Source of the DNA: a virus
Taxonomy: Duplodnaviria; Caudoviricetes
Reading direction: 5' to 3' (one strand)
Length of the DNA stretch: 64,000 nt
IMG/VR virus record: IMGVR_UViG_3300009787_000007
Location: 22,346-86,345 of that record
In this document: positions 32,101 through 51,836 of the stretch, in pieces
How positions within the stretch are numbered: the stretch's first letter is position 1
Layout: every line of letters starts with the position of its first letter
The notes under the pieces: generated by a model
Seen by the model: the letters and a program-made list of their open reading frames with translations, nothing else
The model's database searches: none
Told to the model about the DNA's origin: nothing
Program-made: the position numbers and the translations under genes

Positions 32101-32548
32101 CTACATATTCAGTATTAAATACTGCATCAGCAGCTAATCCTATCTTCTTAAATACATCTGATGTTTTCTCTAAGTCAGCTATATTTTCAGATAACTCTTC
32201 ACTACCTGATATGGCTTTAGCAAAAGTTAATCCTTCAGCTACACCACTAAATTCTCTAATAGCTTTCTTACCTTCTATAAAGATTTCTTTAGCTATATCT
32301 AAATTAGTAAATACTGCATATAAACTAGCACCAACTCCTACTAAACTACCTAGTGATTTACCCATAGCAGCAATACTTTTATCTGCTTTCTCTGCTACTC
32401 CAACTATTCCTTTTAAATCACTATCTAATTCTTTAAATCCACTTAGACTTTTCTTAAAACTACCTAAATTATCTTTTAATCCATCAAATTCTTTATTTAA
32501 ATCTAGGAAGAAACTACTTAATGTCTCATTATATACTTTAGCTGTCAT
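26153..32548 (-). CDS. Tail tape measure protein (TP901-family core)
   Basis: 2131 aa helical A/K/L/Q-rich protein. TP901 core YDIASAGF...A.QLF.T.K.G..TLDQL...IG.L...A..LGVDFEDV.AALA.LT.KG...SEA.T...ALF. Follows the chaperone pair. Confidence 0.92.
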   Translation of the reverse strand: MTAKVYNETLSSFFLDLNKEFDGLKDNLGSFKKSLSGFKELDSDLKGIVGVAEKADKSIAAMGKSLGSLVGVGASLYAVFTNLDIAKEIFIEGKKAIREFSGVAEGLTFAKAISGSEELSENIADLEKTSDVFKKIGLAADAVFNTEYVVEWSGKAINAFAKVEQAAYRLSTVTVQGNEQSIDSIDKTIESMRELQKQTNFAVGSVALLNTQYDIASAGFTKQKDTNNVGKASINLSQAGFGNVGGSTNAIVRVLKSLDEGSDQAEKRAAQLFTTTKVGLLTLDQLTGEIGSLSVQAKSLGVDFEDVTAALAGLTLKGVTTSEASTKINALFNEIASGSEEANKYLANFRDSAGKPIQLNASSLKEKGLKGIIDDLKSATGGDTSVIQKLFSTKEAQDAVKLLISLGDDYGQFVDRIKNASTENLSSEAKNRAKTLVGAYEEGINKSQASIEDFGKGFKPDALQGLIQGNKLIEEFADKTATTTGETVGFLTSIATKAKAIGGFLLSATGILGFFAAFKGVGSVLGGVKDSLFGTKDKTNDDGSVTTGKKGLLTGFKKENETIWESVKRNASLAADNIENRFSEAIARIAAKVKELNAEVSQVGSNSEGEASSTPLTYSREDAYKAPYVDRSGRRSALEANSAITTAESVEEEAVKPKFTGKTFTEHLAGANTFFQGRESGIEKVIGEGANQKLGQGISTAARGFDMFKNSAFGLKTAFSAVLATGKEMLLMFAGSAAIIGIVGGAISYVTTVFSSLTQLLDHSTIPELQTMRDTLNDFKDVKGISDIVDDLDPLAGKVTGVNEALDQSIDIVNALGGAWKSVTGQTKVYGVIKDTINDAQGKLTSDIDENLSNSKKGVFGAKTDAGKIAEDKLNNGLDLSSEDKSALEAEQRHRIEEIDARIALQRQKIAAFDSKGDGNKEEGNQLKTDLTTLEKTSEEQKKQLGLQTKQLELKDAVRRLQSLDITIPLNIQLSTDREEAVKAQIKDVTDLFKDGINGVLDKPEAFNNLKNKLDTTFKGIQAEAELDPQSAVKLKEQLENSLGKDNLTKLYKANPELLQGASTTNAAITQGISKNAQNTLTSKTAVLDSASNLGSNSTAIALDKYQSNLTYINELATNLSKELADPATSLARQAEILAQIEELEAKRLSLNADAQIRAELDGRKQTLSVAQELLNLEQIKLGLYSQENKFDLFSMSLSQAKLDAAIKEVAVKKEGLEISSREDEIKKQAIITSLQDKVTRDKNNANTVSNLGDTNLSDKQQSNIKSIQDNTKKKIDSINQEYLSKKKISSDNAYTFDDNQKGADDKAAITDALINISRNSANPQNQKDLERILGKDKADKLNQATIPDKDTESLLFTGNKLNNGKEITNLINRNRLGENYDNPLTKLATGLNLYTPAGSVDNAGKILNDRDQSKLDSDIKAGQNRNKELNIANRNNDDAINKTNINFNKVNQNRDVANYNSDNIKGIIGNSNSSNINSNNINSSNNSKLTTAQQDASNSKFLNELKLFNADYEGAIKVSTLTIENEYAAREKSIKQGELLAQSLGKISGLTDIFGNSVAGAGLELINFQAAKPYERLNKDAEEARKQVGNAQNLREKAVTGLDKLLADAVNSGASKETIAKISDSRNTAIKQRDLGKSEAASDLNSINQNTAIGKVYTQLQEDTLSIKSKYAQREAFSNNSSEVANAYGSFSSGLGSVLNSISPNSSYAAKLNTQAVSAKASADIETRGISKDKQFDLLDERLKGLDQLIEVSKQTGVDPNKIKQLTTTRNDTVKEIGITKDLVNQRNSLQDANDKLSIFSAKLSESSTTIAEQIDILTKESSITKDSIDFQQRQRDLASASNKSGANLQSSFFSFLGKNSPITDILQQRLDVKGVDEDTKLAKAKNTTDAQKEILDLTLQKAQLSLEEQGYENALTQTALLGDVLGTLKGEKTNFSSSDLVQQSIANITQKIQQSRGLNAAKSDLIDQKLNYVPTELDTKNTNLDRDALAKKNNILGSNLLPANFDLIKDNVNGTKKALEDFNYNDYKSPSLSDPEYKAGLDKLKNQIHLVNPSDANSLNKLASSFNANGNANGTVSVQAPISITIPVNGTSSAASDENFQNDLKVFVGKQVNTSLDKLSQALLAAVSK

Positions 32549-36365: not shown

Positions 36366-36938
36366 TTATCTCCCACTAAGATATTTTCCCCATGCTCTGG
36401 CTTCTGCTGAACTAGCTAAGAATGTTCTATATCCTGTTCTTACTTGTCTAGTATTAGCTCTAATTTCATCTGCATTAGTTAAATCTTCTTCTCTCTTTTT
36501 CTTATTATATAAAACACTGAACTGTTCAGGTGTTAATTGCGCTTTTTCTGAATCTAGTAAATCATCTAAATTTAACTTTCTATTAAATATAAATGGTTTT
36601 ACATTATTATTATTATTAGGTTTAGTTATAGTTTCTTTAACTTCTTCTATATCACCATTAGTTGATGTTCCATTACTTTTTTCAGGTAATATTTTAACTT
36701 GTTTTCTATCTAATAATCCAGTTGGTTCTATCTTTACTTCATCTTCTATATCATCACTAAAATTAGCTATATCACACATATACATGAAACTAACTTTAGG
36801 TATACCTATTCTTTTAGTTCCCATAGCTCTAAATTCCTCATTGATTTTACCACCAAATGGTATTCTATTAATCTTTCTTCTTTTACCTCCAGGTGAATAA
36901 TTCCTCCAATTCTGAGGTAATTGATTTACTATATTCAT
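36366..36938 (-). CDS. Basic/polar hypothetical head-region protein with a YMCDIANF linker (F60)
   Basis: 190 aa; basic N-terminal 60 residues end in the shared A-N-F motif. Confidence 0.6.
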   Translation of the reverse strand: MNIVNQLPQNWRNYSPGGKRRKINRIPFGGKINEEFRAMGTKRIGIPKVSFMYMCDIANFSDDIEDEVKIEPTGLLDRKQVKILPEKSNGTSTNGDIEEVKETITKPNNNNNVKPFIFNRKLNLDDLLDSEKAQLTPEQFSVLYNKKKREEDLTNADEIRANTRQVRTGYRTFLASSAEARAWGKYLSGR

Positions 36939-36950
36939 AGTTCAATCCTA

Positions 36951-37448
36951 TTAAATATATTCAATTAAATTAGGTAATAATTTATCATGTTTAAAATCTA
37001 TTGCACAGATATCTATCCATGATTTCTTAGAAATTAATGGACATCTAGAATCTAAATCAATATAAGATATAAAAGGTGTTTTACTTCTCTCTATAATTAC
37101 TTTTTTTGCACTAGTTTTACCTACATACTTAATAGCAGCTAATTCATCTTCTGAACATTCATTAATATAAATCTTTTCTATCTTTACTTCAGTTAGTTCA
37201 GGTAAAATCTCTGTTTCTTTATAATCTAAATTCATATTAAATTTCTGTACAGGCATAGCTATTTCAATATTACTAGCAGTTAAAGCTATTTCTACATCTT
37301 CTAATGTCATTATTGTTTTCATTCTAGCTTCTGCTATATCTATTAAATCCTCTCTATATATTCCTGGTTTAATTATCACTCCATTCATATCTATATACGC
37401 TATATGAATCTTATAATGTCTATACTCTTTATCTTCTTTATTATTCAT
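36951..37448 (-). CDS. ComEA-like helix-hairpin-helix protein
   Basis: IYINECSEDELAAIKYVGKTSAKKVIIERSKTPFISYIDL aligns by eye with the ComEA ININ.AS.EEL..L.GIG...A..II..R...PF.S..DL pattern. Confidence 0.65.
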   Translation of the reverse strand: MNNKEDKEYRHYKIHIAYIDMNGVIIKPGIYREDLIDIAEARMKTIMTLEDVEIALTASNIEIAMPVQKFNMNLDYKETEILPELTEVKIEKIYINECSEDELAAIKYVGKTSAKKVIIERSKTPFISYIDLDSRCPLISKKSWIDICAIDFKHDKLLPNLIEYI

Positions 37449-37467
37449 AACTAAATTTTATTTATAT

Positions 37468-37502
37468 AAAAATAGATAGCATAGATTAACTATACTATCT
37501 AT
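37468..37502 (-). terminator. Intrinsic terminator after the major capsid gene
   Basis: 13-bp stem whose single mismatch is a G-U wobble on the minus-strand RNA, 5-nt loop, followed by a U tract. Confidence 0.65.
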
Positions 37503-37569
37503 ATCATATCACTCTAAACTAAATACTCTAACTCTTACTTCAATTAGTAACTTTTTACTAATATTACTA

Positions 37570-38763
37570 TTAATAATTAGTATATGATTGTCCTGAAAAC
37601 TCGAAGTCTGCAAGATTCTGAGTTGTTTGTAGATTAGCAATTGTTGTTACTTGTCTACAAAATCCTCTCTTAGCTATAGCTGGTGCTGTAATTATCATCA
37701 TTGAAGCTGTAGCTGTAATATCTAATGGAGGTTCTTTCGATTCTTCATATGTTCTTTGATATATTCCTGCTTTACCAGCATTTTCTAATGTTCCACCTAA
37801 TACTCTTTCTGCCATTCCTTTCTTTAAGAATACTACTTTAGATGGGTCTAAGAATCTTACTGGATGATTCATACCATCATTAGCTGTATCTAATGAGAAG
37901 AAATCATCAACTAAAGTAATTGGAGGTAAAAATCTTCTTCTTAATACTTCATTTAATTGATCTACACTTACAGTTCCAGTAATTGTTGAACCAACTGTTA
38001 ATGATGCTACTACAGCTTCTCTAGTTGAATCTTGTCTTAGTAACATATTAAGTAATTGTTCAGACATTGCTATCTCATCTGCTCCAAATCCATTATCGAA
38101 TTTGTAAACATAGTGCATATCTACTAAATCTTGTATACCATTAGCTGTACTAAACTGTGTCCAATCTCTAGTACCAGTTAATGCAGCAGGGAAGTGATTA
38201 TAGATAGCTGTAATAGCTGGTTTCCAATCCATATTAATAGCTAAACCTGTTCTAGTATCACTATATGCCATCGCACCAGTTTGTAATACCTGCCAAGCTA
38301 GATAATCTAGTAAATTAACATGACCTCTTACTAATGATTGAATAGTACCAAAGATCATTTCAGCTAAACTATTATCTTGACCTATAGATATCTTACCTTC
38401 ACCTACACTAATATTCTGTACTGTAATACCTCTAGCTGCTGCAAATTCTTTTACTTCTTTTAATTTCCATTGAATATCTTCAGTCCATTCGTGTTTCAAT
38501 GCTGCTTTGAATAATCTTGTAGCAATTTGATTGAATTGACCTTTTTTAGTTGATGGATATTCAGCACCAAATGAAATTAGAGAAGCAATTGGATCAATTT
38601 GCATTGTAACATATGCTAACCAATCTCTACCTTCTTTAGTCTTCATTGGTACATACTTATCTAATACTTTAGACCTTTCTTTTAATTGTCTTAAAGTATT
38701 ATCAACTACTAGATTCGCTGTTCTAGCTTGTCTCTGTTCTTGTAACCAACTTTCAACGTACAT
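37570..38763 (-). CDS. Major capsid protein (lambda gpE-like, HK97 fold)
   Basis: 397 aa; IASLISFGAEYP...G.F......K......., LAWQVLQTG, LRRRFLP.I..VDD and P..FL....V.F patterns of the Phage_cap_E family; position after the decoration gene. Confidence 0.85.
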   Translation of the reverse strand: MYVESWLQEQRQARTANLVVDNTLRQLKERSKVLDKYVPMKTKEGRDWLAYVTMQIDPIASLISFGAEYPSTKKGQFNQIATRLFKAALKHEWTEDIQWKLKEVKEFAAARGITVQNISVGEGKISIGQDNSLAEMIFGTIQSLVRGHVNLLDYLAWQVLQTGAMAYSDTRTGLAINMDWKPAITAIYNHFPAALTGTRDWTQFSTANGIQDLVDMHYVYKFDNGFGADEIAMSEQLLNMLLRQDSTREAVVASLTVGSTITGTVSVDQLNEVLRRRFLPPITLVDDFFSLDTANDGMNHPVRFLDPSKVVFLKKGMAERVLGGTLENAGKAGIYQRTYEESKEPPLDITATASMMIITAPAIAKRGFCRQVTTIANLQTTQNLADFEFSGQSYTNY

Positions 38764-38950
38764 TTATATATATATTCCTTTTAATTTTTAATTAACTATA
38801 AATTTTATTTATTCTTATTTATTAATTCTATTAATATTTACTTAACTATAATTAAATATATTTTGTATATACTTTTATATACTTAATTATAGTATAAATT
38901 AATTAACTACATATTCAATACTTAATATTCAGTAATTAAACACTTAAATA

Positions 38951-39862
38951 TTACTTATAGAAGTAAGCATTAATATTTAGACCTATAAACATTCTCTTTA
39001 ATTGCATATCAATATAAGGTAAGTTATTTTGATATACACCATCTGCATTAGTAATAGGTGCAATAAATTCTGTAGGAACCATAGTGAAATCTAAAGGTTC
39101 TGAGTAAATACCTAGAATTTTATTGTATTTCAATCCTACTGGAGTATTAATAGGTAATGCTTGTGTTGCATTTCCACTTAATGTAACTACTCTTTGACCA
39201 GCAGTATTAGGACTAGCTATACTTGCAATAGTTCCTAATGGAATTATAGAATCTCCTAAGTAACTATGCTCTGTACTTACAACTACTCCTTGTAATGCAC
39301 CATCAGTTGAATTAGTAGCAATAGAATATGAGTCAATACCATAAAATAGTAATGAACCTGTAATTCCTCTCTGAGTTACTGTAGTCTGACTATCAGTAAA
39401 CATCTGTGTAGCATTAGCTGATACAAATGCAGCAGCAACACTAGCTAATGTAGGACTAGCTGGTACAGTTACACTATATGCAATATTATTAATTGCAATA
39501 GTAATTATGTCTCCAGCAGTTGGTGTACCTTGTAATACTACTTCTGCATAACAAGCTTGAGCATATAATACATCACCTACTTCAAATGAGAATGATGGAG
39601 CATTTAATGTAACACTTGTAGAATTAGTAGCTGTAGCTGCACCTAATCTAGTTCTAGGTAAACATCTAGTAGCGTTACCTGTAGTATTACCTGAAGACAT
39701 TTGTACATTTGCAATAAACATACCTTCAGGTACTAATCTTTGTAGATTTACATCTGGTAATACATCTGCTTGGTATAAAGGCACTGAGAATGGCGCTCTC
39801 ATGCAATTTAAACCGTATAGAATTGGTTTACCGTTAAAAAACTTTTGAATAGTTAAATACAT
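38951..39862 (-). CDS. Head decoration/cement protein with inserted domains
   Basis: 303 aa directly upstream of the capsid gene; LVPEGMFIA...G N-terminus and GIY....D........G.Y...LPY C-terminus typical of gpD-like proteins. Confidence 0.55.
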   Translation of the reverse strand: MYLTIQKFFNGKPILYGLNCMRAPFSVPLYQADVLPDVNLQRLVPEGMFIANVQMSSGNTTGNATRCLPRTRLGAATATNSTSVTLNAPSFSFEVGDVLYAQACYAEVVLQGTPTAGDIITIAINNIAYSVTVPASPTLASVAAAFVSANATQMFTDSQTTVTQRGITGSLLFYGIDSYSIATNSTDGALQGVVVSTEHSYLGDSIIPLGTIASIASPNTAGQRVVTLSGNATQALPINTPVGLKYNKILGIYSEPLDFTMVPTEFIAPITNADGVYQNNLPYIDMQLKRMFIGLNINAYFYK

Positions 39863-39931
39863 TCTGTTATATTTCCTTTTATATATCTTTAATTTTATTC
39901 TCAGTAACTATACTTAATCTTATATTTACTA

Positions 39932-40786
39932 TTAATCAATTAAGTTAAGTGCAAAATTATCTCCAAATATAGCATCGATATCACCTTCAACAGCTTTATC
40001 TAAACTAGCTGAGAATTGAGCTACATTTACATCTTTCTCACTTAATGAATAATCTTTAAATTCTACAAACTGAGAAGCATCATTAATAAACTGTAGAGCA
40101 AATTCAGCAGCAAATAGCATTACATCGATAGGAACATTATGTGTTTCTGCCATCTGTGCAAATCTAGCTACTCTATCATCACTAGCTGAGAAATTACCTA
40201 CTAACATCGCTTTATGTGCTGGAGGTAAAATACCTTCATTTACTAAACTTTCAGCAGCTACATTTAAGTTATTTAGTCTATTTGAAATAGCACTATAAAT
40301 CTCAAAATTAGCTAACTTTTGTTCAATTTCATTGATTCTTTGAAATTCTGCTGTATTCATATTATTTCTGTTATATTGTTCAGTTTGCTTTACTTCTTCT
40401 TCACTTGGATAATGCTTCTCTTCTTCTCCTGTATCTCCTTCACTCATTCCTGCTTCTGGAGATTCAGAATTACCTTTCATTGCTTCATGCTGCTCAATCT
40501 GTTCAATTAATGCTTTCTTATCATCTTGATCTACAGCATCAGCTACATTTACAATTACTTCTAAATCATGTTCATCTGCATCAGGAAAAGCATCTATAAT
40601 AGCAGCTAGTAAATTCTCATCTTCTACTATATGTTTACCTTTTATAATACCAACTACTTCTTCTTCACTTAATCCACTTGTCTGTACTAAAGCTTGTATA
40701 CCTTGATCTATATCTCCACCATACTGAGATTCAATTAGGTCTAATAGTAATTCTCCAAATGGATTGCTAGGATTTAATTCTTCCAT
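39932..40786 (-). CDS. Probable capsid scaffolding protein
   Basis: Very acidic helical 284-aa protein upstream of the decoration and capsid genes; internal TAEF (F148) and LANF (F161). Confidence 0.55.
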   Translation of the reverse strand: MEELNPSNPFGELLLDLIESQYGGDIDQGIQALVQTSGLSEEEVVGIIKGKHIVEDENLLAAIIDAFPDADEHDLEVIVNVADAVDQDDKKALIEQIEQHEAMKGNSESPEAGMSEGDTGEEEKHYPSEEEVKQTEQYNRNNMNTAEFQRINEIEQKLANFEIYSAISNRLNNLNVAAESLVNEGILPPAHKAMLVGNFSASDDRVARFAQMAETHNVPIDVMLFAAEFALQFINDASQFVEFKDYSLSEKDVNVAQFSASLDKAVEGDIDAIFGDNFALNLID

Positions 40787-41044
40787 ATCTATATATTAAT
40801 TTTTTAATTTCGTTTTAAACTATCTAAAATATCTAAACTGTCTAAACTTCTTTGTTTATATGTCTATTATTACTTTATGTACCATTAACTGATGTTTTAC
40901 TAATATATTCTTATATATATTTCATATATTAATATACTACTACATTTACTTGATTTATGTATAAAAATATTATACTTGTTTAATACTTATCTAATTACTA
41001 TTTACTATTTACTAATTAGTATTTAACTGTTAACTATTTTCTAA

Positions 41045-41758
41045 CTAATTTCCCACATCCATATAATTTTTAGATTCTGGAGATATGCTAGAACAAGCTA
41101 CTCTATAACCACAAGTCATATCTTTATTTCTCATTCCACTACCTTTATTAGCTAAAGCATTTGTAGCTACATTTATATCTCCAGTCTTCATATTTGAAGT
41201 ATTAGTAATTCCATCTGTTTTATGTTTCTTAGAATCAGATGTATTATCTTCTTTACCTCTATAGTTATCTAACTTATTCTGTGTAGTATTTTCTTTATCC
41301 TCTTGTATATTGAATTTAGCTGTCTTTCTACTATTACTAAATCCATTCTGAGTAGGTTGAGTAGTATTTACATTACTCGGATTCATAGGTTGAGTTTGAT
41401 TAGATTGATTTCCACCACCAGCTAATCTATATCCTCCATAACCTACACCTGCTCCTATACCTAATGCTCCATATCCAGTTAAGGCATTTTCACCATCTGT
41501 AGGTTCTATTCCACCTATAGCTTTATTTATTCCTTCTCCTGCATTAGTAACTGCTCCATGTATTTTCTGTCCAACATTTTGAGCATTTTGAGCTATATTT
41601 TGTAGAAATCCAGGTTTCTTAGCATTACCTTGAGCTACATTAGCTACTCCTTCTACTGCATCTTCAGCTAAGTTGAATTTAGCTGTGCTATCAAATTTAG
41701 CTAACTGTCTATAGTTAGAAAAACTAACTGTATTTGAATATCTATAACCTTTCTTCAT
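41045..41758 (-). CDS. Glycine-zipper internal virion polyprotein (AKF linkers at F22, F28, F149)
   Basis: GYGALGIGAGVGYGGY segment plus a polar C-terminal module after FSNSRKTAKF. Confidence 0.7.
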   Translation of the reverse strand: MKKGYRYSNTVSFSNYRQLAKFDSTAKFNLAEDAVEGVANVAQGNAKKPGFLQNIAQNAQNVGQKIHGAVTNAGEGINKAIGGIEPTDGENALTGYGALGIGAGVGYGGYRLAGGGNQSNQTQPMNPSNVNTTQPTQNGFSNSRKTAKFNIQEDKENTTQNKLDNYRGKEDNTSDSKKHKTDGITNTSNMKTGDINVATNALANKGSGMRNKDMTCGYRVACSSISPESKNYMDVGN

Positions 41759-41833
41759 TTTAAATTTCCTTTATTACTTAATATATTGTTTATTATTTAA
41801 CTGATTTATATTTATATTTATATTTACTATTTA

Positions 41834-43168
41834 TTAATATAAATATTTAGCATCCTTAGTATCCATTATAGGATAATCATCAGGTCTAGTAGCATTTTCT
41901 ATCAATGAACCTGTTCCTAGTATACCTAATGCACCTGCTCCTAAAGTACCATAACCTGCTACTTTATCATTTCTTAATTGATTTATAACTTCTTTCTTTT
42001 TAGCTAATCTAATTTGTTTATTTATTTTATTTTTTTCATCTTCATCAAATGCACTTAATAAATCTAATTCATACTTTTCTCTTTGATCTGTTCCAGTATT
42101 AGGTAAAACATTACCTGTAATTTCATTTACATCTTTACCTAATTTACCAGCTAATTTATCTATTCCTTTACCTGTTTTATCTAAATATCTATTAATATGT
42201 TTCTGTGCTTGATCTGATGCTTCATTTAATACTCTATATGCTTTATCCTTTAATGTAGGCTTATATAATCCTACACCTTCTGCTATATCACTTACTATAT
42301 GATTTAATGCAAACGTAGCTAATAGTCTATCTCTTTTATTAACTCTTAAATATTCATTATATGGACTATAATCTATATTATCTATACTCATATTAGCTTG
42401 ACTTAATGCTGTACCTGCTCCTATAGTTCCTACTCCAGCTAAACCTAAAGTACCATAACCTGCTATTCTATTATTCCTATTCTGAGTTTTATAAAATCTA
42501 TCTTTTATAGAATCTAATTGGTCATTAAACTTATTATTCTGTGCTGCTAACACTTCATATTTAGCTTTATTCTTTTTATAATAATTAGGTATTTTTAATT
42601 CTTCTAATTCCTTAGCTGCTTGATTAGGTAATATATTACCAGTTAAATCATTTACACCTTTACCTACATCTTCTACAAATGTATTTATATGATTTAATGC
42701 ATTAAATGTAGCAGTATTAGTAAATAATGTATTTTTATCTCTACTATATGCTGCATATGGACTAGGATAATTAGATATATTAGGTTTATTATTACCTGTA
42801 ATATTTCCTATAGCATCACTAGCTAATTTAGTAGCACCTAAACCACCTAATCCTATAGCTCCATATCCTGTAGCAGTATTTAACCTATTAATATTTCTAA
42901 GTGTATTCAATTGCTTGTTTAACTTAATCTTACTATCATCTGCTAACTTATTAAAATGTTCTGGAAATTGTTCTTTATACTTTCTAATAGCATTAGATGT
43001 ATTAGTTTCTATATTAGTAGGTAATCTCCTAGTAATAGCTTGACCTAGATTACCTGCTGTTTCATGTAACTGTTTAAATCTCTCAGCTAAAGGTTTAAAT
43101 AACTGTAATGGTTTTTCTTCTACTTCAGCTTTAGCTGAACTATAGTTAGAAAATATTTGTTTATTCAT
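41834..43168 (-). CDS. Three-module glycine-zipper polyprotein (ATF linkers at F155, F286)
   Basis: Three homologous units, each ending R..GYG[AT][IL]G..G.G...; units 2 and 3 both begin ALNH and share DVN.[LI]TGN[IV]LPN-like text. Confidence 0.75.
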   Translation of the reverse strand: MNKQIFSNYSSAKAEVEEKPLQLFKPLAERFKQLHETAGNLGQAITRRLPTNIETNTSNAIRKYKEQFPEHFNKLADDSKIKLNKQLNTLRNINRLNTATGYGAIGLGGLGATKLASDAIGNITGNNKPNISNYPSPYAAYSRDKNTLFTNTATFNALNHINTFVEDVGKGVNDLTGNILPNQAAKELEELKIPNYYKKNKAKYEVLAAQNNKFNDQLDSIKDRFYKTQNRNNRIAGYGTLGLAGVGTIGAGTALSQANMSIDNIDYSPYNEYLRVNKRDRLLATFALNHIVSDIAEGVGLYKPTLKDKAYRVLNEASDQAQKHINRYLDKTGKGIDKLAGKLGKDVNEITGNVLPNTGTDQREKYELDLLSAFDEDEKNKINKQIRLAKKKEVINQLRNDKVAGYGTLGAGALGILGTGSLIENATRPDDYPIMDTKDAKYLY

Positions 43169-43201
43169 ATACTTTATATAACTTATATATATATATCTAT
43201 A

Positions 43202-44053
43202 TTAATCTATTATTTCTCTAGCTAATTTTACTAATCTTCTAGGTGAATTAATTCCTTTCTTATATAGTTCAGGATCAGTAATAGTATTTAGTAAAGCAGG
43301 ATCATCAGTTCTTTCTCTTATATCTGGATTTCTAAATAATGAATTAGTTTTTAATTCAGCTTCATTTACTGCATATTTAGCATCTCTAAACCCTTTAGTT
43401 AATGCAGATTTTAATTCATTTGTTTTACCTTTAAATCCTTCTATAATCTTTCTACCTATACTTTCTTCCTCTTTCTTAGGTATAGATTTAAGTATTTTCT
43501 TAGTTGCTATAGATGATACACCACCTGATAAACCACCTATTAATGTACCTAATGCTATATCTTTACCAGCTTTACCTATATCTTTACCTTCTGATTCAGG
43601 ATCTAATAAATATTTAGCACTTCCTATAGTTCCACCTGTTAATGCACCATGTATAGCTTGCTCTAATACATCTTCATTTAATAAGTTGAAATCAGCTTTT
43701 TTTTTATTAAACCTAGCTACATAATTATTATCAAAATTATGATGACTAATTCTTGCTGCATGTTCATTACTTATATCAAACTCACCAGGTTGATTAGCAT
43801 TAGCAGCTATTCTATAACCTGTATGTTGATACTTATTCATAGCATTATTTGGATCAGAATTAGTATTTTGTTCTACATTCTCATTACTATTACTTCCTAA
43901 TGATTTACCTTCAGCTAATAAACCTTGTTCTGCTATTTCAGCTTGTAAGTTAAAATTACTAATATTATTATTATTTCTATTAATATAATCGTTATCATAA
44001 GCTTTATAGTTAGCAGTTGCAAGGTTATAGTTTATTCTATAACCTCTTTGCAT
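43202..44053 (-). CDS. Glycine-zipper internal virion polyprotein (ISNF F34, KADF F122)
   Basis: Two GYRI-containing polar units, then an AIHGALTGGTIG...IALGTLIGGLSGG hairpin. Confidence 0.7.
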   Translation of the reverse strand: MQRGYRINYNLATANYKAYDNDYINRNNNNISNFNLQAEIAEQGLLAEGKSLGSNSNENVEQNTNSDPNNAMNKYQHTGYRIAANANQPGEFDISNEHAARISHHNFDNNYVARFNKKKADFNLLNEDVLEQAIHGALTGGTIGSAKYLLDPESEGKDIGKAGKDIALGTLIGGLSGGVSSIATKKILKSIPKKEEESIGRKIIEGFKGKTNELKSALTKGFRDAKYAVNEAELKTNSLFRNPDIRERTDDPALLNTITDPELYKKGINSPRRLVKLAREIID

Positions 44054-44090
44054 TATATTTATCCTTTTAGTTTATTACTAGTTATATTAA

Positions 44091-45587
44091 CTAACTACCT
44101 CTTCTATAGTATTTTCTATCATTAACTGATTTTCTATTAGAGCTAAATTCAGCCATATATATAGGATTAGAATAGAAATTAGCTTTAGCTATAGTATCTT
44201 TAGAATACTGTAATCCAGGTATAGAAGGTTGAAATACTTGATCTACTCCACCTTGTATAGCTTGTCCTGCTGAATTAGCTACATCACCTATAACTGCTTT
44301 ACCACCATTAATAATATTACTAACATGACTGCCTAAATTATTAACATGATTTAAAGCAGCTTGAGCAAATACATTGAAATGATCACCTAGTTCATTTTTT
44401 AATCCTGCAACTTCTTCTTCATTTGGTGGTGTTTTACCGTTAAATAAAGATTTAACTTGGTCTAACTTATCAGTTCCCCATTTATTTATACCTTGTGATA
44501 ATTTTTCTGCATGATCTTTACCATTATAGAATAAGTTTTTAGCTCCTTCTCCTATTTGGTCTAAATGTGTACCTGCACCTGCTCCTATTGCTCCTGCACC
44601 TGCTACTACTGCTCCTGCTGTATTACCTGCATTTTTAACTGTATTAGCAGCTTGTTGTACAGCTTCACCACCTGCTCCTTTCAAAGCATTATAACCATAA
44701 TGTCCTGCTGCTCCTGCTCCTGCACCTAAAGCTGCTCCTGCTACACCTCTACCTAATCTATCACCTAAAGTTGCATTAGGATTAGCTGTTAATGCACCAC
44801 CTAATCCACCTATACCTGCACCTATAGTCATAGGATTAATGAAGAAATTAGCTGTACTATTCATATATCTACTAGCATTGAATTGGTCTAATAAATCTGA
44901 TGCACCTGCACTAGCATCATGTACACCATCTTTACCTGAAATAATACCCCATTTATTAGAACCTGATATATATTTAGCCGCTTCTTCTTTAGATATACCT
45001 AACTTATGTGCTAAAGCTGTAATTGCTTGACTAATTTGAATCTTACCGCTATCTAATAAACTCTGTGCTTTTTGTATATATGGATGTGCATTACTAGCTA
45101 GTTCAGAAGCTTTACCTTGTATTACATCAGGTAGAACAGATGATAATTCTCTAATATTTTGTTTATTATCATAAGCTACTTTACCTGCTCCTCCTAATCC
45201 AGTTAAACCAGCTAATCCTGCTACAGTCTTACCTATCCAATTTCCACCTTTACCTTCATCTTCTGCATCTCTAGCAATTCCTTCTCCTAGTCCTTTACCT
45301 AATCCAGAATCTAAAGCTTTAGTATCTTTAGCAGCACCTCTTAAGTATTTAATTCCTTTAGCACCACCATATCCAGCAGCACCACCTGTAGCAGCACCTA
45401 TTAATGCTCTAGATACTCTATCTGAATCATCACCTGTACTAGCTCCAGCTAAAGCACCTGCACCTGCACCACCTAGTCCAGCTAGAATATCTTTATGCTC
45501 TAATAAACTTTCTAAACCAAAATTAGCTGGTTTATATGGTTTAGCAGTATATAATCTTGTTGTATTAACTCTACTAAAATTTGACAT
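44091..45587 (-). CDS. Two-module glycine-zipper polyprotein (ANF/AEF at F23, F248, F471, F481)
   Basis: Two homologous G-zipper hairpin plus G-rich helix plus amphipathic tail units, bounded by A-x-F linkers. Confidence 0.75.
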   Translation of the reverse strand: MSNFSRVNTTRLYTAKPYKPANFGLESLLEHKDILAGLGGAGAGALAGASTGDDSDRVSRALIGAATGGAAGYGGAKGIKYLRGAAKDTKALDSGLGKGLGEGIARDAEDEGKGGNWIGKTVAGLAGLTGLGGAGKVAYDNKQNIRELSSVLPDVIQGKASELASNAHPYIQKAQSLLDSGKIQISQAITALAHKLGISKEEAAKYISGSNKWGIISGKDGVHDASAGASDLLDQFNASRYMNSTANFFINPMTIGAGIGGLGGALTANPNATLGDRLGRGVAGAALGAGAGAAGHYGYNALKGAGGEAVQQAANTVKNAGNTAGAVVAGAGAIGAGAGTHLDQIGEGAKNLFYNGKDHAEKLSQGINKWGTDKLDQVKSLFNGKTPPNEEEVAGLKNELGDHFNVFAQAALNHVNNLGSHVSNIINGGKAVIGDVANSAGQAIQGGVDQVFQPSIPGLQYSKDTIAKANFYSNPIYMAEFSSNRKSVNDRKYYRRGS

Positions 45588-45660
45588 ATTTAAATTATTT
45601 ATTCCTTTATTAAAATTTATACTATTAAGTTTATATTTAAGTTAGTTAACACTAATAACA

Positions 45661-46269
45661 CTAACTTAATGTTGAATAATATGGATCTTCTTCTATATAT
45701 TTATTGTAATTTGTTTTACTAAATTCTGCTGAATTAGTATCATTTATATTCTTACTAAATGGTATAGGTACATGAAGTGGTAACTGAGTTAGAAAATGTT
45801 GCGCTCCATGAACTAGATTACCTACATGATGTAATCCATCTCCTATAGCTGTATTTACTACACCAGGATATCCAGGAGTCTTAGTAGGATCAGCTTGTAC
45901 AGCTTTCATTACTACTGCTGGTACTATTCCTACATTAGTCATAACTATACTTACTTTCTGTAAAGGAGTAGGATTATTAAACTCTTTTAAAAACGCTTTA
46001 GTATTATCTCCAGATTTCTTGTAAAATCTATCAGCTAATGTCTCATCTAGTTTCTTACCTCTCTCTTTAGCTATCCTTACTCCTGTTCCTATTCCATATC
46101 CTCCTAAACCTCCTACTGCTCCTCCTATGCTTGCTTTAGTTAATCTATTATCATCATTACCTGTTAAAGCACCTATACCTGAACCTAGTGTAGTACCTAT
46201 ACCAGCAGTAACAGCAGAATTAAAGTTAGCAGAATCAACATTAACCATATATAATTTATATTTATTCAT
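45661..46269 (-). CDS. Glycine-zipper protein flanked by SANF (F16) and SAEF (F183)
   Basis: AGIGTTLGSGIGALTGNDDNRLTKASIGGAVGGLGGYG resembles module 1 of the 498-aa ORF. Confidence 0.72.
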   Translation of the reverse strand: MNKYKLYMVNVDSANFNSAVTAGIGTTLGSGIGALTGNDDNRLTKASIGGAVGGLGGYGIGTGVRIAKERGKKLDETLADRFYKKSGDNTKAFLKEFNNPTPLQKVSIVMTNVGIVPAVVMKAVQADPTKTPGYPGVVNTAIGDGLHHVGNLVHGAQHFLTQLPLHVPIPFSKNINDTNSAEFSKTNYNKYIEEDPYYSTLS

Positions 46270-46286
46270 AGTATTTAATTTATTAT

Positions 46287-48656
46287 TTATGCTGTTCTAG
46301 TGTTATATGCTCTTTCTTCTTCTAGTAAACGTTGTCTTTGTTCACGTTTAGCTTTCTGATCATCTAGATAAGTTTTACCAGCTAATAATGCACCACCACC
46401 AGCTAATAAACCTAAACCACCTAGACCTAAAGCTTTAAATTTCTTATTATCAAAATACTGTCTTATATTTTCTAATCCTAGTTCTTTCTTAGCACCAATC
46501 TTAGCTAATTCTTGAGCATTTTGATTTCTAGCCTTAAGTAGTTGCATATCATGAGAAGGTTCACCTATCCATCTCCAGAAACTATTAGGAGTAGTATGAT
46601 TTAATAACTCTTTTTCTCCTCTATTTTTATAGATTTGTTTAGCTACTTCATCACTTTTATATCCTGCATCTTCACCTAATAATCCTCCAGTTAAAGCACC
46701 TAACCATCCTTTACCTGGTACATAACTTTTACCTTCACTAGCTTTAGCTCTAATAGCTCTTATATTCTGTCTACCAGCTAATGCTCTTTCTTCTAATCTC
46801 TGTTTATGTTCTTGTCTTAGTAAATCGGATCTAATTCTAGAATCAGTTATAGCTTTTTCTCTAGCTAACCTATCTTCTTCATTTAATTTTCTTATTTCAT
46901 GTTCATTATTTACACCAGTTAATTTTTCGTTACTATATATATTTTTAGATTGAATTTGTTGATTAATTAATGCCTCTTGTTTAGCTTTTTCTGCTTCTAT
47001 TTCAGCTTGTCTTATCTTTGCAGTATTATCTAATTGTGATATTTGTAAGCTGTTACTTTGTGGTTGATAACTTATTCTAGTTTTAGTTCCACCTTCAGGA
47101 CTAATACTTTCTTCTCTTTCTAATACATTTCTACGAGTAGATTCTTGCTTAGTTTCCTCATCTCTAACTTTTAGTGTACCAGGTGCTACTACTCTACTAT
47201 TAGGATCAGGATTTTCTAAATCAATATTATTATTATTTGTAGGTGGTATATTATTTCCTCCTCCACTACCTGTATCTCCATTTCCACCATTATTTATAGG
47301 TGGATTAGTAGGTGGATTAGTTGATGAGCTATCTTGATTTATTCCATTATCTACAACATTTCTAATTTGATTAGTAGCTTTATCTCTCAATCCTAATAAA
47401 GTACCTTTTAATTCACTAAGTAATCCTCCACCTCTATTAGTTTCACTAGCTTCTTGAATAGGAATTACTGGATTACTAACAGGATTACTAACAGGATTAT
47501 GAGTAATTACTGTAGGTGTAGTATTTATACTAGGTTTAGTTTCTACTCTATAACCATTACTAGGATCTGTACTTTCTATAGCTCTAACACTAGGTTGTCT
47601 AGGAGTTTCAGGAGTAGAAGGTGTAGTACCAACTGGTGTTTCAGTAGTATTATCTGGTCTTATATTTATAGGTTCTAAATTGTTTATTTTATTACCTATA
47701 TATCTATATTTATAAGCAGTAGATACAGGTGCGATTTTTCTTGCATTAGATAAATTAGAACGATGATCATTTATATTAGGGTTACTAATTATTAAATCTC
47801 CATTCTGTTGAGTTAAAGGTAATCTAACTGAATTAGGTTCATGATTATCTTCATGATATATTCTATCTATACCTAATAATCCTTTAGCTTCTGCTTTTCT
47901 ATCAGCTTGTTCTCTTAATATAGCTATATTTTCATGATGTTGATGTACTTCATCTATAATACTAGGTCTAGCACGTTTTAAACTATCTAATCTATTTAAA
48001 GCATGATTAACTTCATCTTGAGTAATTCTTTTAGTTTCTCCTGTTAAATAGTTAGTTCTATGATAACCATGTGTTTCTTCTCTATGAAGTAAAGCTAAAT
48101 GATTTCTAGCTTCTTTAAATGCTTTATCTCTGCTTCCTTTTTCAGCTAATTGATATAATTCCTGCTCTGTTTTATTTTTACTAGAATCATGATAAAGTAA
48201 ATTTCTATATTTTTCCTTATTTTGCGCTCTAGCTCTATCTCTCCTTTCTAGTAACTTCGCTCTTTCTATATCTGCTTGTTCAGTTAATCCTCTTGTAACA
48301 CTAGGCTCATAACTAGCTTTATTAGCTGTAATACCACCTTTAGCTTTATGAGTTTCAGTAGTGTTTACATTATGTAATGGATGATTAGTATTTTCTCTAG
48401 CATCTCTATCTCCTTTCCTAATCTGTAAATAAGGATATGATGTAAAATCTGCTATCCTTTTATTTACGTTACTTACATTAAATCTTTTATTCTTTAATAA
48501 TCCATAACTAACACCAGCAGCTATAGGTATAGTTACTATATTAGGATTAGCTATCGCATAACCAATACTTCCACCACTAGCTATTAATTTTAATTCTTCT
48601 GGTGTTAATTTTCTCTTTCTATTAGTTACTTTATCTACTACTTCATCTAATAACAT
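46287..48656 (-). CDS. Large internal virion/ejection-like protein (IADF F71; P/T/N-rich linker; C-terminal coiled coil and G-zippers)
   Basis: 789 aa; hydrophobic N-terminal unit, charged helical body, GWLGALTGGLLG and GLGGLGLLAGGGALLAG segments. Confidence 0.65.
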   Translation of the reverse strand: MLLDEVVDKVTNRKRKLTPEELKLIASGGSIGYAIANPNIVTIPIAAGVSYGLLKNKRFNVSNVNKRIADFTSYPYLQIRKGDRDARENTNHPLHNVNTTETHKAKGGITANKASYEPSVTRGLTEQADIERAKLLERRDRARAQNKEKYRNLLYHDSSKNKTEQELYQLAEKGSRDKAFKEARNHLALLHREETHGYHRTNYLTGETKRITQDEVNHALNRLDSLKRARPSIIDEVHQHHENIAILREQADRKAEAKGLLGIDRIYHEDNHEPNSVRLPLTQQNGDLIISNPNINDHRSNLSNARKIAPVSTAYKYRYIGNKINNLEPINIRPDNTTETPVGTTPSTPETPRQPSVRAIESTDPSNGYRVETKPSINTTPTVITHNPVSNPVSNPVIPIQEASETNRGGGLLSELKGTLLGLRDKATNQIRNVVDNGINQDSSSTNPPTNPPINNGGNGDTGSGGGNNIPPTNNNNIDLENPDPNSRVVAPGTLKVRDEETKQESTRRNVLEREESISPEGGTKTRISYQPQSNSLQISQLDNTAKIRQAEIEAEKAKQEALINQQIQSKNIYSNEKLTGVNNEHEIRKLNEEDRLAREKAITDSRIRSDLLRQEHKQRLEERALAGRQNIRAIRAKASEGKSYVPGKGWLGALTGGLLGEDAGYKSDEVAKQIYKNRGEKELLNHTTPNSFWRWIGEPSHDMQLLKARNQNAQELAKIGAKKELGLENIRQYFDNKKFKALGLGGLGLLAGGGALLAGKTYLDDQKAKREQRQRLLEEERAYNTRTA

Positions 48657-48659
48657 TTC

Positions 48660-49676
48660 TTATACTCTTACACCTCTTAAATATTTCTTAGTAGTAGCAT
48701 ATACTTGATAATTAAAATTAGCTGTACTTTTTCTTGTATATTTACTATATTGACTAGCATTTGTACTAGCTAAATCTTGATACTGAGTTTGCTGCATCTG
48801 TTGTTTCTCATCTGCATTTAATATCGGCATATTTGTAGGATCTGTAGCTTGATTCATCTGTTCTTCTACATTAGTTAATCCTAGTAAATCTATAACTCTT
48901 GTACTAAATCCATTTAATGCTGAATAAACATACTGCAATAAAGTTGGTAAATCATTAATCTGTATAGCATTACTATTATAAACATTATTAAGTAATGTCC
49001 ATAAATCATCTGTTAAATCATTATATTCATCTTTTAAGTCATCTAATGTTTGTTGATTAGCTTCTAAATCATCCCATGTATAAGCATTATCTTCATTATT
49101 AATTCCAAATCCGAACATTCCCATATTATCTATAGCTGGAATAGGTACTAAAGATACTTCTAATATTCTTTCATCATCAGGATCTAAATTTAATCCCATT
49201 GATACTGAATTAATAGTATTACTCTTAATCTTTTCTATAGCTGGTTTATCTGTAACTATTACATCACTCATGAATAAACCTACTTTACCTATTAAATGTT
49301 TAGCTCTCTTATTAGGTAAATCAGATTCAGTAATAACTTTAGTATATGCTTTACCTCCTACTTTACCAATAGTAAAATCTACAGTCTTTTTATGGTCTTT
49401 ACATAGAGGTACATCTTTACCATTTTCTAACGCTAAATTTGTAAACTTAGCTATCCTATCTAATCTACTTTCTGTAAACTTATGCTTATTACCATTACTG
49501 TCTTTAAACTCTCCTGGTGTAGCTATTAATACAGTCTTAACTAAAGCATCATCAGTATTACTACTATCAAAATTAGCTATATCTATATAACCAGTGCTAT
49601 CAAAATTAGCTGTACTTTGTAAACTAGAATTAAATCTAACTGAACTTACTTCTCTCTGCTTTCTATATCTTTTCAT
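48660..49676 (-). CDS. Prohead maturation protease (Mu gpI-like serine protease)
   Basis: IATPGEF, VPLCKDH (catalytic His), SVSMGL (catalytic Ser) and EVSLVPIPAI motifs; position between MuF and the scaffold/capsid genes. Confidence 0.8.
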   Translation of the reverse strand: MKRYRKQREVSSVRFNSSLQSTANFDSTGYIDIANFDSSNTDDALVKTVLIATPGEFKDSNGNKHKFTESRLDRIAKFTNLALENGKDVPLCKDHKKTVDFTIGKVGGKAYTKVITESDLPNKRAKHLIGKVGLFMSDVIVTDKPAIEKIKSNTINSVSMGLNLDPDDERILEVSLVPIPAIDNMGMFGFGINNEDNAYTWDDLEANQQTLDDLKDEYNDLTDDLWTLLNNVYNSNAIQINDLPTLLQYVYSALNGFSTRVIDLLGLTNVEEQMNQATDPTNMPILNADEKQQMQQTQYQDLASTNASQYSKYTRKSTANFNYQVYATTKKYLRGVRV

Positions 49677-49793
49677 TGTTATTTATATTAATTATGTTAA
49701 TTACTGTTACTTTTACTATTCTTATATCTACTATATTTTATCTTTATATTAAAATTCTACTTATATCTATATAGATATTATACACTTACTATA

Positions 49794-51836
49794 TTAATTA
49801 CCTAATTCTATTACTAACTCATTATACGTATCTAAATATTCTCTATCAGGTAACTTACTAACTTCTTTCTGTCCTTCTTCTAACACATCTATTATCTTCT
49901 CTAAGTTAGTAATGTCATCTTTAGTTATTATATTTCCATTCTCTAACTTATATACTTTCTCATCTTTAGTAATTGTTTCTTTATTATCTAATTTACTTTT
50001 ACCTTCAATTTTACTTTCTATTATTCCTTCTCTAGCTTTATTCTGTATGTCATCTAAAGTTTGTCTTATACTTCTCTCTCTCTTAATCTCTATAGGCTTA
50101 TCTTCTATATAATCAACTGCATATCTATAAGGCTTAATTTCATATCCTGGTAATTCATTGTTTATTTCATTATCTATATTCTCTATACCTTCTACTGTTC
50201 TGACTGTTCTATATTCTTCTGTAGCTGGTTTATATATATTACTTAAATTATCTACTACTTTATTACTTATACTTATATCTTCATCCTTAACTAAATTCTT
50301 TACTTTACTTACACTGTTTATTACTTCTTCTCCAGTTTTATCTATCTCCTTTATAAAGGATTTAAAAGCATTACTACGTGCTAATAAAAATCCACCTGTA
50401 ACAGCTAGACCTAATCCAGTTACATTTATAGCTGTATCAATAGCTTTTTCTATCGAATCAGATTGTTCATTAGCTTTCTGTATATCTTCTATATTTCTAT
50501 CTATATCTTTATTACTTCTACTTATTCTTAACTCAGATTTATTACTACTAGCTCTAGTTGTAGTACCTTTTTCTACACCACTTTTTGTTACTTTCTTAGT
50601 TCCATTATCAATACTTACCCATCTACAATTGCAGTTAGGATGGTACGCTATAACAGGAAAATTAGGATTCTTCCAAACTGTTTTAGTTTCTTCAGTACCT
50701 TTATAATTTAGTACACCTGTATCAGTAATACTTCCTATTTCTAGTAGATGTCTAACTGTATATCTTTTACCATTCATGAATTTACAAGCTTTACATACTT
50801 CATATCCAGTAATTAAACCTTCTAATTCAAAGTCAGCATTCCATTCTACTATCCTATCTAAATCTTCTGGACTATTAAATGCTGCTAATTTACCAAAGTT
50901 ATAAGCTAAAACTAGTTCTGTTCTAACTATTCTTCTAGCTCTAATGGTTCTTTCTTCTAATGTTTCATCTACAGTTAAGCTAGTTAAACTAGCTCTAATA
51001 CTTGTAGTAATATCATTAATATTCTTAGCACTACTCTTTATACTTTTTACACTTCCTATATCTTTAGATAGATAATCTTTAATATCTTGTTTTACATATT
51101 GGTCATATCTTCTAGCATATTCTATACCTAATACAGCTTTTCTTTGTTTAATATAATTACTGCCTAAGTAGTTAGCTTTCATAGCTTCAGCTTTTTTAGA
51201 ATCATTTACTATAGTTTTGATACTTTCTAAAAATGATTTTCTTTGTTCCATATTCATTCTGCCAGTAATAAATTCATGACCATCTAAACCTAATCTTTCA
51301 AATAGTCTTAATCTTTTAGCTTCATCTAATAGTCTAATATTTCTAGTTACTCTAGCTTTATCTTTACTAGCCTTATTTCTTTTATCTCTTTCTCTCTGAC
51401 TTATAAATTCTGCTATATCAGTAATCCCTATATATCCAAACTTAATATTCTTAGGTTTAGTTTTACTTACTTTCTCATTAAATACTTTCTTAAATGATTT
51501 ATTGTTATAAAGTAAATCAGCTATATGATGTTTAATACCAGTTTCAAAAGCATCATTCCATACTTCACCTATAACATTAGTAAATATATTTCTATTGAAT
51601 CCGAATAGATTCATGAAAGGTTTTTTATGTTCCATAGATAGATTATCTATAGTATGTTTAGGATTACTATTAGCTATTCTTTCTAAGTCTTCTGTAGGTG
51701 TATTAACTATAAAACTAGTTGCAGTATCTAATAATAAATTCTTAAATGTCTTCTCCTTATATTTAGAATCTAATTTAGTAAAGCTAATATTAGTAATTAT
51801 ATTTAAATCATTAAGTTGTTTATTACTATGTGTCAT
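49794..51836 (-). CDS. MuF/SPP1 gp7-like minor head protein with C-terminal extension
   Basis: RARRIVRTELVLAYNFG, W.A.......VC..C..MNG..Y and P...HPNCNC signatures; extra 270 or so residues including VTGLGLAVTGGFLLA. Confidence 0.85.
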   Translation of the reverse strand: MTHSNKQLNDLNIITNISFTKLDSKYKEKTFKNLLLDTATSFIVNTPTEDLERIANSNPKHTIDNLSMEHKKPFMNLFGFNRNIFTNVIGEVWNDAFETGIKHHIADLLYNNKSFKKVFNEKVSKTKPKNIKFGYIGITDIAEFISQRERDKRNKASKDKARVTRNIRLLDEAKRLRLFERLGLDGHEFITGRMNMEQRKSFLESIKTIVNDSKKAEAMKANYLGSNYIKQRKAVLGIEYARRYDQYVKQDIKDYLSKDIGSVKSIKSSAKNINDITTSIRASLTSLTVDETLEERTIRARRIVRTELVLAYNFGKLAAFNSPEDLDRIVEWNADFELEGLITGYEVCKACKFMNGKRYTVRHLLEIGSITDTGVLNYKGTEETKTVWKNPNFPVIAYHPNCNCRWVSIDNGTKKVTKSGVEKGTTTRASSNKSELRISRSNKDIDRNIEDIQKANEQSDSIEKAIDTAINVTGLGLAVTGGFLLARSNAFKSFIKEIDKTGEEVINSVSKVKNLVKDEDISISNKVVDNLSNIYKPATEEYRTVRTVEGIENIDNEINNELPGYEIKPYRYAVDYIEDKPIEIKRERSIRQTLDDIQNKAREGIIESKIEGKSKLDNKETITKDEKVYKLENGNIITKDDITNLEKIIDVLEEGQKEVSKLPDREYLDTYNELVIELGN

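Follow-up and report, generated by a model that had tools for sequence, protein, structure and literature searches.

The question raised by this locus is why a single tripeptide, alanine-x-phenylalanine (A-x-F), recurs in so many different proteins of one phage head module. The locus lies in a stretch of 64,000 nucleotides (hereafter "the window"; positions 22,346 to 86,345 of the IMG/VR virus record IMGVR_UViG_3300009787_000007), whose source record is 86,345 bp long with 27% guanine plus cytosine (GC) and an estimated completeness of 59% by CheckV. The head module occupies the minus strand of the window from 36366 to 51836 and contains 13 open reading frames (ORFs). In order, these encode a MuF-like minor head protein of 680 amino acids (aa), a 338-aa protease, six proteins that have no family assignment and are here called cargo (789, 202, 498, 283, 444, and 237 aa), a 284-aa scaffold-like protein, a 303-aa protein, the 397-aa major capsid protein, a 165-aa helix-hairpin-helix protein, and a 190-aa protein; the tail genes, with a 2131-aa tape measure, follow (Table 1). 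An earlier note on this DNA had listed copies of A-[NEKDT]-F in these proteins and had proposed that they form a cleavage code for the head protease, and every copy was found at the residue given. The reading that we favor, and that we regard as rather likely, is that the phage's own 338-aa assemblin-fold serine protease recognizes an extended form of this motif and cuts after its Phe inside the procapsid, and that the same signal probably serves for addressing as well. From the evidence below we infer three things, namely that proteins are cut, that the cut falls after Phe, and that the 338-aa protease makes it.

The motif itself is real, specific to the head module, and conserved across proteins that are only 27-58% identical. 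In the 13 ORFs of the module, A-[NEKDT]-F is seen 24 times against 3.9 expected, and none of 3000 per-protein shuffles reaches 24. The other 58 ORFs of the 86-kb record contain 19 copies against 14.0 expected (56 of 500 shuffles), and the difference between the head module and these remaining ORFs has a Fisher P of 4.6e-8. Outside the head module, the record is at expectation. When all 400 X-x-Z patterns were scanned without bias, A-x-F ranked second in the head module (32 vs 11.7, P = 7.7e-7); the sole pattern above it, G-x-G (62 vs 29), stems from glycine zippers. The codons at the sites differ synonymously (GCT/GCA, AAT/AAC, TTT/TTC), and consequently the signal lies at the level of the peptide and a DNA-level repeat is ruled out. 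An artefact of AT-rich composition is also ruled out, given the per-protein shuffles, the controls at expectation, and the conservation of the motif in relatives of 36-37% GC.

The only cultured relatives are PA-SR01 (137 kb) and Pam2 (143 kb), siphophages of Pseudanabaena, whose proteases share 42-53% identity and whose capsid proteins share 54% identity with those of the window. The protease neighborhoods compared (loci L001-L008, L010, and L011) include six metagenomic relatives beside these two phages; a single-protein scan of IMG/VR yielded no further loci, and capsid-profile scans yielded three in IMG/VR, one usable in metagenomes, and no more. The head sets of PA-SR01 (where A-x-F ranks 1 of 400), L003, L004, and L005 show an excess of A-x-F that at most 8 of 1000 shuffles reach in each and that the control proteins lack, and the same leaders and sites are evident by eye, without a shuffle test, in L010. 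Furthermore, a position matrix trained solely on the protease and cargo proteins of loci other than the window assigns a score of at least 4 bits to 9 of the 141 Phe residues in the window's head module vs 2 of 799 elsewhere (Fisher P = 1.3e-6). Cargo proteins have about half the Phe content of controls (1.6-2.4% vs 3.8-5.0%), and the share of their Phe that sits in A-x-F is 17-36%, compared with 4-8% in control proteins.

Alignment of 140 sites from the head sets gives an extended consensus, [F/Y/M]-[S/N]-[K/R]-x3-[K/R]-[T/V/S]-A-[N/E/D]-F followed by S, N, A, or G, and the A-x-F sites of control proteins have no such flanks. In protease notation, with the Phe at P1, these preferences resemble subsites: N, E, or D at P2, T, V, or S at P4, and a small residue at P1'. 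Tandem sites 5-10 residues apart are present, as in known processed propeptides. The Phe is nearly invariant; Ala predominates at P3, where Ser, Val, Thr, Leu, and Ile are found as well. In 34 homologs, the three protease sites have Phe at P1 in 31, 31, and 29 cases (the last with three Tyr besides), whereas Ala stands at P3 in 13, 23, and 11, the others being S/V/T or L/I. Thus, of the two motif positions stressed in the earlier note, the Phe at P1 is kept in most of these homologs and in all leaders, whereas P3 is not strictly Ala, the site being only Ala-preferring. An upstream element of 10-13 residues (aromatic-S/N-K/R ... K/R) is part of the signal, and for this reason the signal may be a combined addressing and cutting tag.

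The gene for the candidate enzyme is part of the head module, with the MuF-like gene on one side and those for scaffold and capsid on the other. Its AlphaFold2 (AF2) model has a folded core at residues 41-185 with a predicted local distance difference test (pLDDT) score of 85-97, a helical domain at about 199-300, and a basic C-terminal tail, and residues 13-40, 186-198, and 301-335 score below 50. As modeled, the protein has the prohead-protease (assemblin / T4 gp21) fold. Foldseek with the core gave probabilities of 0.75-0.98 with E at best 1e-2, and VIA-align, used as a second look, gave Z 9.4 with pseudorabies virus assemblin (4v08_A; rmsd [root-mean-square deviation] 2.7, 115 aligned residues) and Z 9.3 with T4 gp21 (5jbl_A; rmsd 3.3, 120 aligned residues), compared with Z 5.2 or less for unrelated structures; a sequence-profile search of the PDB with the protease alignment gave no relevant match. 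A search of 5.8 billion proteins returned 54 homologs at 42-58% identity. D94-H95 and S159, the latter in S-V-S-M-G-L-N, are invariant in 34 homologs; His95 and Ser159 are the probable catalytic residues.

The protease is also a bearer of the motif. F25 and F36 lie in the low-pLDDT segment 13-40 and F321 lies in 301-335, so that sites flank the core on both sides in predicted disorder; each of the three positions is at least 85% F/Y across the 34 homologs, which are 43-55% identical. A short basic tail follows F321, and many homologs have an extra S/A-x-F in the 186-198 linker. The wider family, obtained by a profile search of 1.84 billion cluster representatives, comprises 225 clusters at 50% identity (E <= 1e-3), many of which have a Phe-ending N-terminal leader plus a C-terminal x-x-F and then a basic tail. 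Among 142 representatives, residues 1-45 include a Phe in 139, and a short basic tail follows the last C-terminal Phe; the P3 signal in these 142 is diffuse and not clearly Ala. The earlier note had called the enzyme "Mu-gpI-type", a label that these searches did not confirm: hmmscan gave no PF10123 match at E <= 0.01 for the window protease and 10 distant homologs, a six-frame search of the whole record gave none at E <= 10, and hhalign of the protease alignment against a single-sequence Mu gpI template gave a probability of 0.2, which is not significant. The sole support for a remote relationship to Mu gpI is a published HHpred match of PA-SR01 ORF24, the protease ortholog, to PF10123 (E = 4.5e-18). 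In most relatives, the protease gene has a small HTH_3 regulator gene, in opposite orientation, immediately upstream of it (L004 9640-9900, L005 9638-9967, L006 9761-9994, L007 9679-9912, and L008 9566-9838); the window has none at that place.

The six cargo genes, at window 41045-48656, consist of repeated glycine-zipper modules (G-Y-G-x-L-G-x-G-G), and a Pfam run across all head-module proteins returned weak Gly-zipper matches only. The modules are arranged around the motif. In the 202-aa protein, Gly-zipper_YMGG spans residues 20-61, after the leader; the 498-aa protein has one glycine-zipper module after F23 and another after F248; and the 444-aa protein has three glycine-zipper repeats with its A-T-F sites between them. 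Homology links residues 4-72 of the 202-aa protein with residues 18-87 of the 498-aa protein, and residues 77-150 of the 237-aa protein with residues 83-156 of the 444-aa protein, both of the latter stretches finishing at a site. Such homologies between modules start or end at sites, and the modules that follow sites are glycine zippers. With the matrix from other loci, the four sites of the 498-aa protein score 6.3-10.3 bits and F122 of the 283-aa protein scores 8.3 bits. These glycine-zipper proteins are probably membrane-active ejection proteins.

The cargo of the relatives shows the same organization. Although the small genes that separate protease from scaffold in these loci diverge strongly, leaders of 6-36 residues ending in x-x-F recur at their starts, on many unrelated cargo genes of PA-SR01, Pam2, L003-L007, and L010. 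Examples are M-R-K-S-A-N-F, M-K-H-F-A-N-F, M-S-L-K-A-E-F, M-K-T-L-A-K-F, M-R-L-T-A-R-F, and M-K-[KR]-G-Y-R-x-N...A-N-F; the last type, M-K-[KR]-G-Y-R-x-N, is that of the 237-aa protein and is also present in L004, L005, L007, and L010. Internal joints of the form ...I-R-K-S-A-N-F, often in tandem, occur within the cargo proteins of relatives. A free-standing 184-aa gene of PA-SR01 has a leader, S-A-S-F (F10), that aligns with an internal joint, S-A-S-F (F515), of a 640-aa polyprotein of Pam2. In the L003 homolog of the 789-aa protein, the site is N-A-E-F at F78, again followed by A-S-Y-P-Y.

In the remaining head proteins, the conserved copies fall in several settings. The MuF-like protein matches phrog_1657, "head morphogenesis," weakly (E = 4.9e-4) and has no Pfam match (PF04233); hhalign against single-sequence Mu gp30 gave a probability of 0.2, not significant, though an A-Y-N-x-G-K motif was aligned. 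Although the stretch around them is not conserved, its A142 and F144 do not vary among seven homologs of 27-42% identity. In the scaffold-like protein, the columns of F161, F209, F258, and F274 are conserved, and the last three are invariant in seven homologs. D386-F387 of the capsid protein is invariant, and the tail beyond the Phe is 2-13 residues long in relatives. The position of the site is likewise kept in orthologs of the 190-aa protein (PA-SR01 IASF F61, Pam2 LASF F76, L004 LANF F64, and L010 TADF F74). The 303-aa protein (window 38951-39862), encoded between scaffold and capsid, contains a strictly conserved A-A-A-F at F146 followed by V-[S/T]-A-N-A; a role in decoration or as a second shell protein is possible.

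Table 1. Head-module proteins of the window with their A-x-F-type sites (window coordinates, all on the minus strand; nucleotide positions of each site in parentheses)
Protein	Length (aa)	Coordinates	Sites	Remarks
MuF-like minor head protein	680	49794..51836	F144 (51405-51413)	A-E-F
Head-maturation protease	338	48660..49676	F25 (49602-49610), F36 (49569-49577), F321 (48714-48722)	phrog_976, E = 3.2e-10
Cargo	789	46287..48656	F71 (48444-48452)	then conserved T/A-S-Y-P-Y
Cargo	202	45661..46269	F16 (46222-46230), F183 (45721-45729)	F16, leader end; F183, second site
Cargo polyprotein	498	44091..45587	F23 (45519-45527), F248 (44844-44852), F471 (44175-44183), F481 (44145-44153)	
Cargo	283	43202..44053	F115 (43709-43717), F122 (43688-43696)	leader type M-Q-R-G-Y-R-I-N; tandem sites
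Cargo polyprotein	444	41834..43168	F155 (42704-42712), F286 (42311-42319)	A-T-F at both
Cargo	237	41045..41758	F22 (41693-41701), F28 (41675-41683), F149 (41312-41320)	leader M-K-K-G-Y-R-Y
Scaffold-like protein	284	39932..40786	F148 (40343-40351), F161 (40304-40312), F209 (40160-40168), F258 (40013-40021)	F209 and F258, further conserved copies
Major capsid protein	397	37570..38763	F387 (37603-37611)	L-A-D-F; phrog_29, E = 1.5e-16
Virion protein	190	36366..36938	F60 (36759-36767)	Y-M-C-D-I-A-N-F

This placement is that of T4-type head maturation. T4 gp21 cuts after (L/I)-x-E. As in T4, leaders of packaged proteins here terminate in an x-x-P1 motif that is found again in the scaffold and in a protease of the same fold; sites lie on packaged-protein leaders, at polyprotein joints, at several positions in the scaffold, and on both flanks of the protease domain. 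Cleavage by SPN3US gp245 falls after A-X-E; its substrates are many head proteins, propeptides with several motifs, and gp245 itself (PMC10052503). Because the placement matches T4-type maturation and because A-X-E provides a precedent, A-x-F is read as the cut site of the 338-aa protease. In this model, the protease, scaffold, MuF-like protein, and six cargo proteins would co-assemble into the procapsid, with the leaders perhaps serving also as addressing tags, like the T4 capsid-targeting sequence. The protease would then release its own catalytic domain from the N-terminal leader and the basic C-terminal tail and fragment the scaffold, so that the pieces could exit. Leaders of 6-36 residues would be cut off the cargo, and the 444-aa and 498-aa polyproteins would be split into glycine-zipper modules, which would remain in the head and probably be ejected with the DNA. 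Finally, the first ~144 residues of the MuF-like protein would be separated, and the capsid C-terminus would perhaps be trimmed.

The alternative that survives best, though we consider it improbable, is that the motif is an addressing or docking peptide only. By binding to scaffold, protease, or the inside of the capsid it would load the procapsid, yet it would stay uncut at the Phe, much like the cargo-loading peptides of encapsulins or that half of the T4 capsid-targeting sequence which binds. The upstream element, which holds information beyond the tripeptide, would suit such a role, as would the M-K-[KR]-G-Y-R-x-N leader that unrelated cargo proteins share in several phages and the fact that some proteins of relatives terminate exactly in Phe. 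However, an excess of proteins ending in Phe was sought and is not significant (5 of 69 head vs 5 of 111 control proteins). Furthermore, a docking tag has no need to be internal at module joints, in tandem, or on both sides of the protease domain, and the small P1' preference together with the strict end at Phe suggests a scissile bond. Published mass spectrometry (MS) of Pam2 virions bears on this as well. Table S2 of that work lists the cargo orthologs ORF15 (442 aa) and ORF17 (640 aa), the 302-aa ORF19 (ortholog of the 303-aa protein), the capsid protein ORF20, and ORF22 (ortholog of the 190-aa protein) as detected, whereas the protease ORF14, the scaffold ORF18, the MuF-like ORF10, and ORF16 were not detected (PMC9382816). 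The protease and scaffold thus carry the motif yet are absent from the list, which counts against a tag of this kind. The pattern fits a head in which cargo is kept and protease and scaffold are removed, and it is silent on the positions of cuts.

A second alternative, to which we give a still smaller chance, is that the copies share no function and represent a linker duplicated along with paralogous glycine-zipper modules, plus a few structural Phe residues in the scaffold, capsid, and protease. The cargo modules are indeed paralogous, some conserved copies lie in predicted helices, and the diffuse P3 signal of the wider protease family is in keeping with this view. Nevertheless, at least five families without homology to one another carry the motif (MuF-like, protease, scaffold, capsid, 190-aa, and cargo), it is retained while its flanks diverge, Phe is depleted elsewhere in the cargo proteins, and the cross-trained matrix finds the motif almost solely in the head module. 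The claim that copies fall at domain boundaries holds for the protease and the cargo modules, whereas the scaffold sites lie in predicted helices of an AF2 model that is all-helical with residues 104-128 disordered.

Least probable is that a host protease or another phage enzyme cuts these sites: host Prp does cut capsid and scaffold proteins of staphylococcal phage 80alpha after Phe in MLxx(D/N)LQ(F/L)F'A(S/H)KK (PMC9405229), so that a host can supply P1-Phe processing, but A-[N/E/D]-F followed by S/N/A/G is unlike that motif, the phyla listed with long L27 or Prp exclude cyanobacteria (PMC9405229) whereas the cultured relatives infect Pseudanabaena, and the phage encodes its own enzyme of the prohead-protease fold, itself bearing the motif at conserved positions.

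Cleavage after Phe by the phage protease would resemble known systems in kind and differ from each in detail. Relative to T4, P1 is Phe rather than Glu, P3 is mainly Ala, and the upstream element is longer; in addition, the cargo consists of glycine-zipper polyproteins, the virion is that of a siphovirus with a separate MuF-like protein, and there is no sequence-level similarity to gp21. The likeness to phiKZ gp175 and SPN3US gp245 (A/S/G-x-E) lies in the preference for Ala at P3, in the processing of many head and ejection proteins and of the protease, and in tandem-motif propeptides. Again P1 is Glu there and Phe here, and the sites were mapped experimentally there and are predicted here, in unrelated lineages. 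Mu gpI/gpZ (PF10123) shares the order of MuF-like, protease, and capsid genes and a helical C-terminal extension on the protease; here, however, the scaffold is a separate gene 8 kb downstream of the protease, with the six cargo genes between. With 80alpha and Prp, the common points are a cut directly after Phe, predicted in our case, and the removal of short N-terminal leaders from head proteins (PMC9405229). Prp, however, is a host cysteine protease that acts on N-termini only and has no polyprotein cargo, and its motif is L-Q-(F/L)-F followed by A-(S/H)-K-K, whereas the site logo here lacks L-Q at P4-P3. The kind of system is already known; the novelty would lie in its specificity, the lineage of its protease, the greater length of its signal, and the type of cargo.

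Several points weigh against cleavage after Phe. The upstream element is longer than typical protease subsites, and binding rather than cutting could be the selected function. In L006 and L007, the enrichment of strict A-x-F is weak and, by the shuffle test, not significant. F148 and F161 of the scaffold fall in predicted helices of the AF2 model and not in its disordered linker; because scaffold sites lie in helices, F209, F258, and F274 may be structural, and the same could be true of capsid F387 and of A-A-A-F in the 303-aa protein. The published sodium dodecyl sulfate gel of PA-SR01 has four bands, with the capsid protein at ~47 kDa, which suits the uncut protein and allows at most a small trim. 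A literature search found no proteomic N-termini, gel shifts, or enzyme assays for this clade. It also found no phage-encoded prohead protease with Phe at P1 and no Mu gpI cleavage sites, Pam2 structure, or account of processing in PA-SR01- or Pam2-like phages.

Some observations concern proteins outside the head module. The tape measure (window 26153-32548) has A-N-F at F349 and at F2007, the latter 124 residues from the C-terminus; its nine A-x-F in 2131 residues are consistent with chance, and it would be out of reach of a head protease. Three other proteins (window 13784-14188 on the plus strand and 14217-14636 and 317-715 on the minus strand) contain Y-M-V-[D/E]...F, for example as an N-terminal M-N-T-L-Y-M-V-E-F or M-Y-M-V-D-I-V-Y-F or as a C-terminal T-K-Y-M-V-D-F just before the stop. 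These termini resemble the Y-M upstream element of some head sites, and the three may be further packaged proteins.

Other observations concern the neighborhood. The 165-aa gene (window 36951-37448), between the capsid and 190-aa genes, matches HHH_3 (E = 2e-5) and is kept in relatives (L006 17639-18103). The large terminase genes of relatives contain inteins (L003: Intein_splicing plus LAGLIDADG), and the MuF-like genes of two relatives (852 and 907 aa) have Intein_splicing/PT-HINT matches; the window copies of both genes have none. The intein matches of relatives lie at L003 1-765, in the P0007 and P0038 loci, and at L006 1-95. The large terminase and portal genes are not adjacent (window 9102-10760 vs 59611-61272); the candidate portal of the window has 552 aa, and in Pam2 the portal identified by HHpred is ORF50, ~50 kb from the large terminase gene. 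A 613-aa ORF beside the large terminase gene carries the annotation "botulinum neurotoxin type B," apparently an artefact produced by a lectin-like beta-sandwich; its L003 counterpart has a faint Laminin_G_3 match and nothing else.

A broader hypothesis, which we advance only tentatively, is that a large uncharacterized family of assemblin-fold head proteases, the 225 clusters described above, evolved a chymotrypsin-like P1-Phe specificity and that the 10-13-residue signal is a portable capsid-addressing tag and cut site in one. If so, the packaged set would be readable from sequence; among its members would be polyproteins that are processed to membrane-active ejection peptides of glycine-zipper type and, perhaps, tagged products of genes that lie elsewhere than in the head module. 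The phage-encoded head-protease sites in the literature searched all have Glu at P1 (T4, phiKZ, and SPN3US); cutting after Phe, if true, would extend the known specificities of prohead proteases to an aromatic P1. The prediction is directly testable, since both PA-SR01 and Pam2 are cultured and MS data for Pam2 virions exist. With cutting after Phe confirmed, the leader would also be a candidate tag for loading foreign proteins into capsids. For the poorly known clade of ~140-kb siphoviruses that includes the cyanophages PA-SR01 and Pam2, most of whose genes bear the label hypothetical, it would become possible to predict from sequence alone which head proteins are processed and packaged, and the glycine-zipper polyproteins would be the likely ejection cargo.

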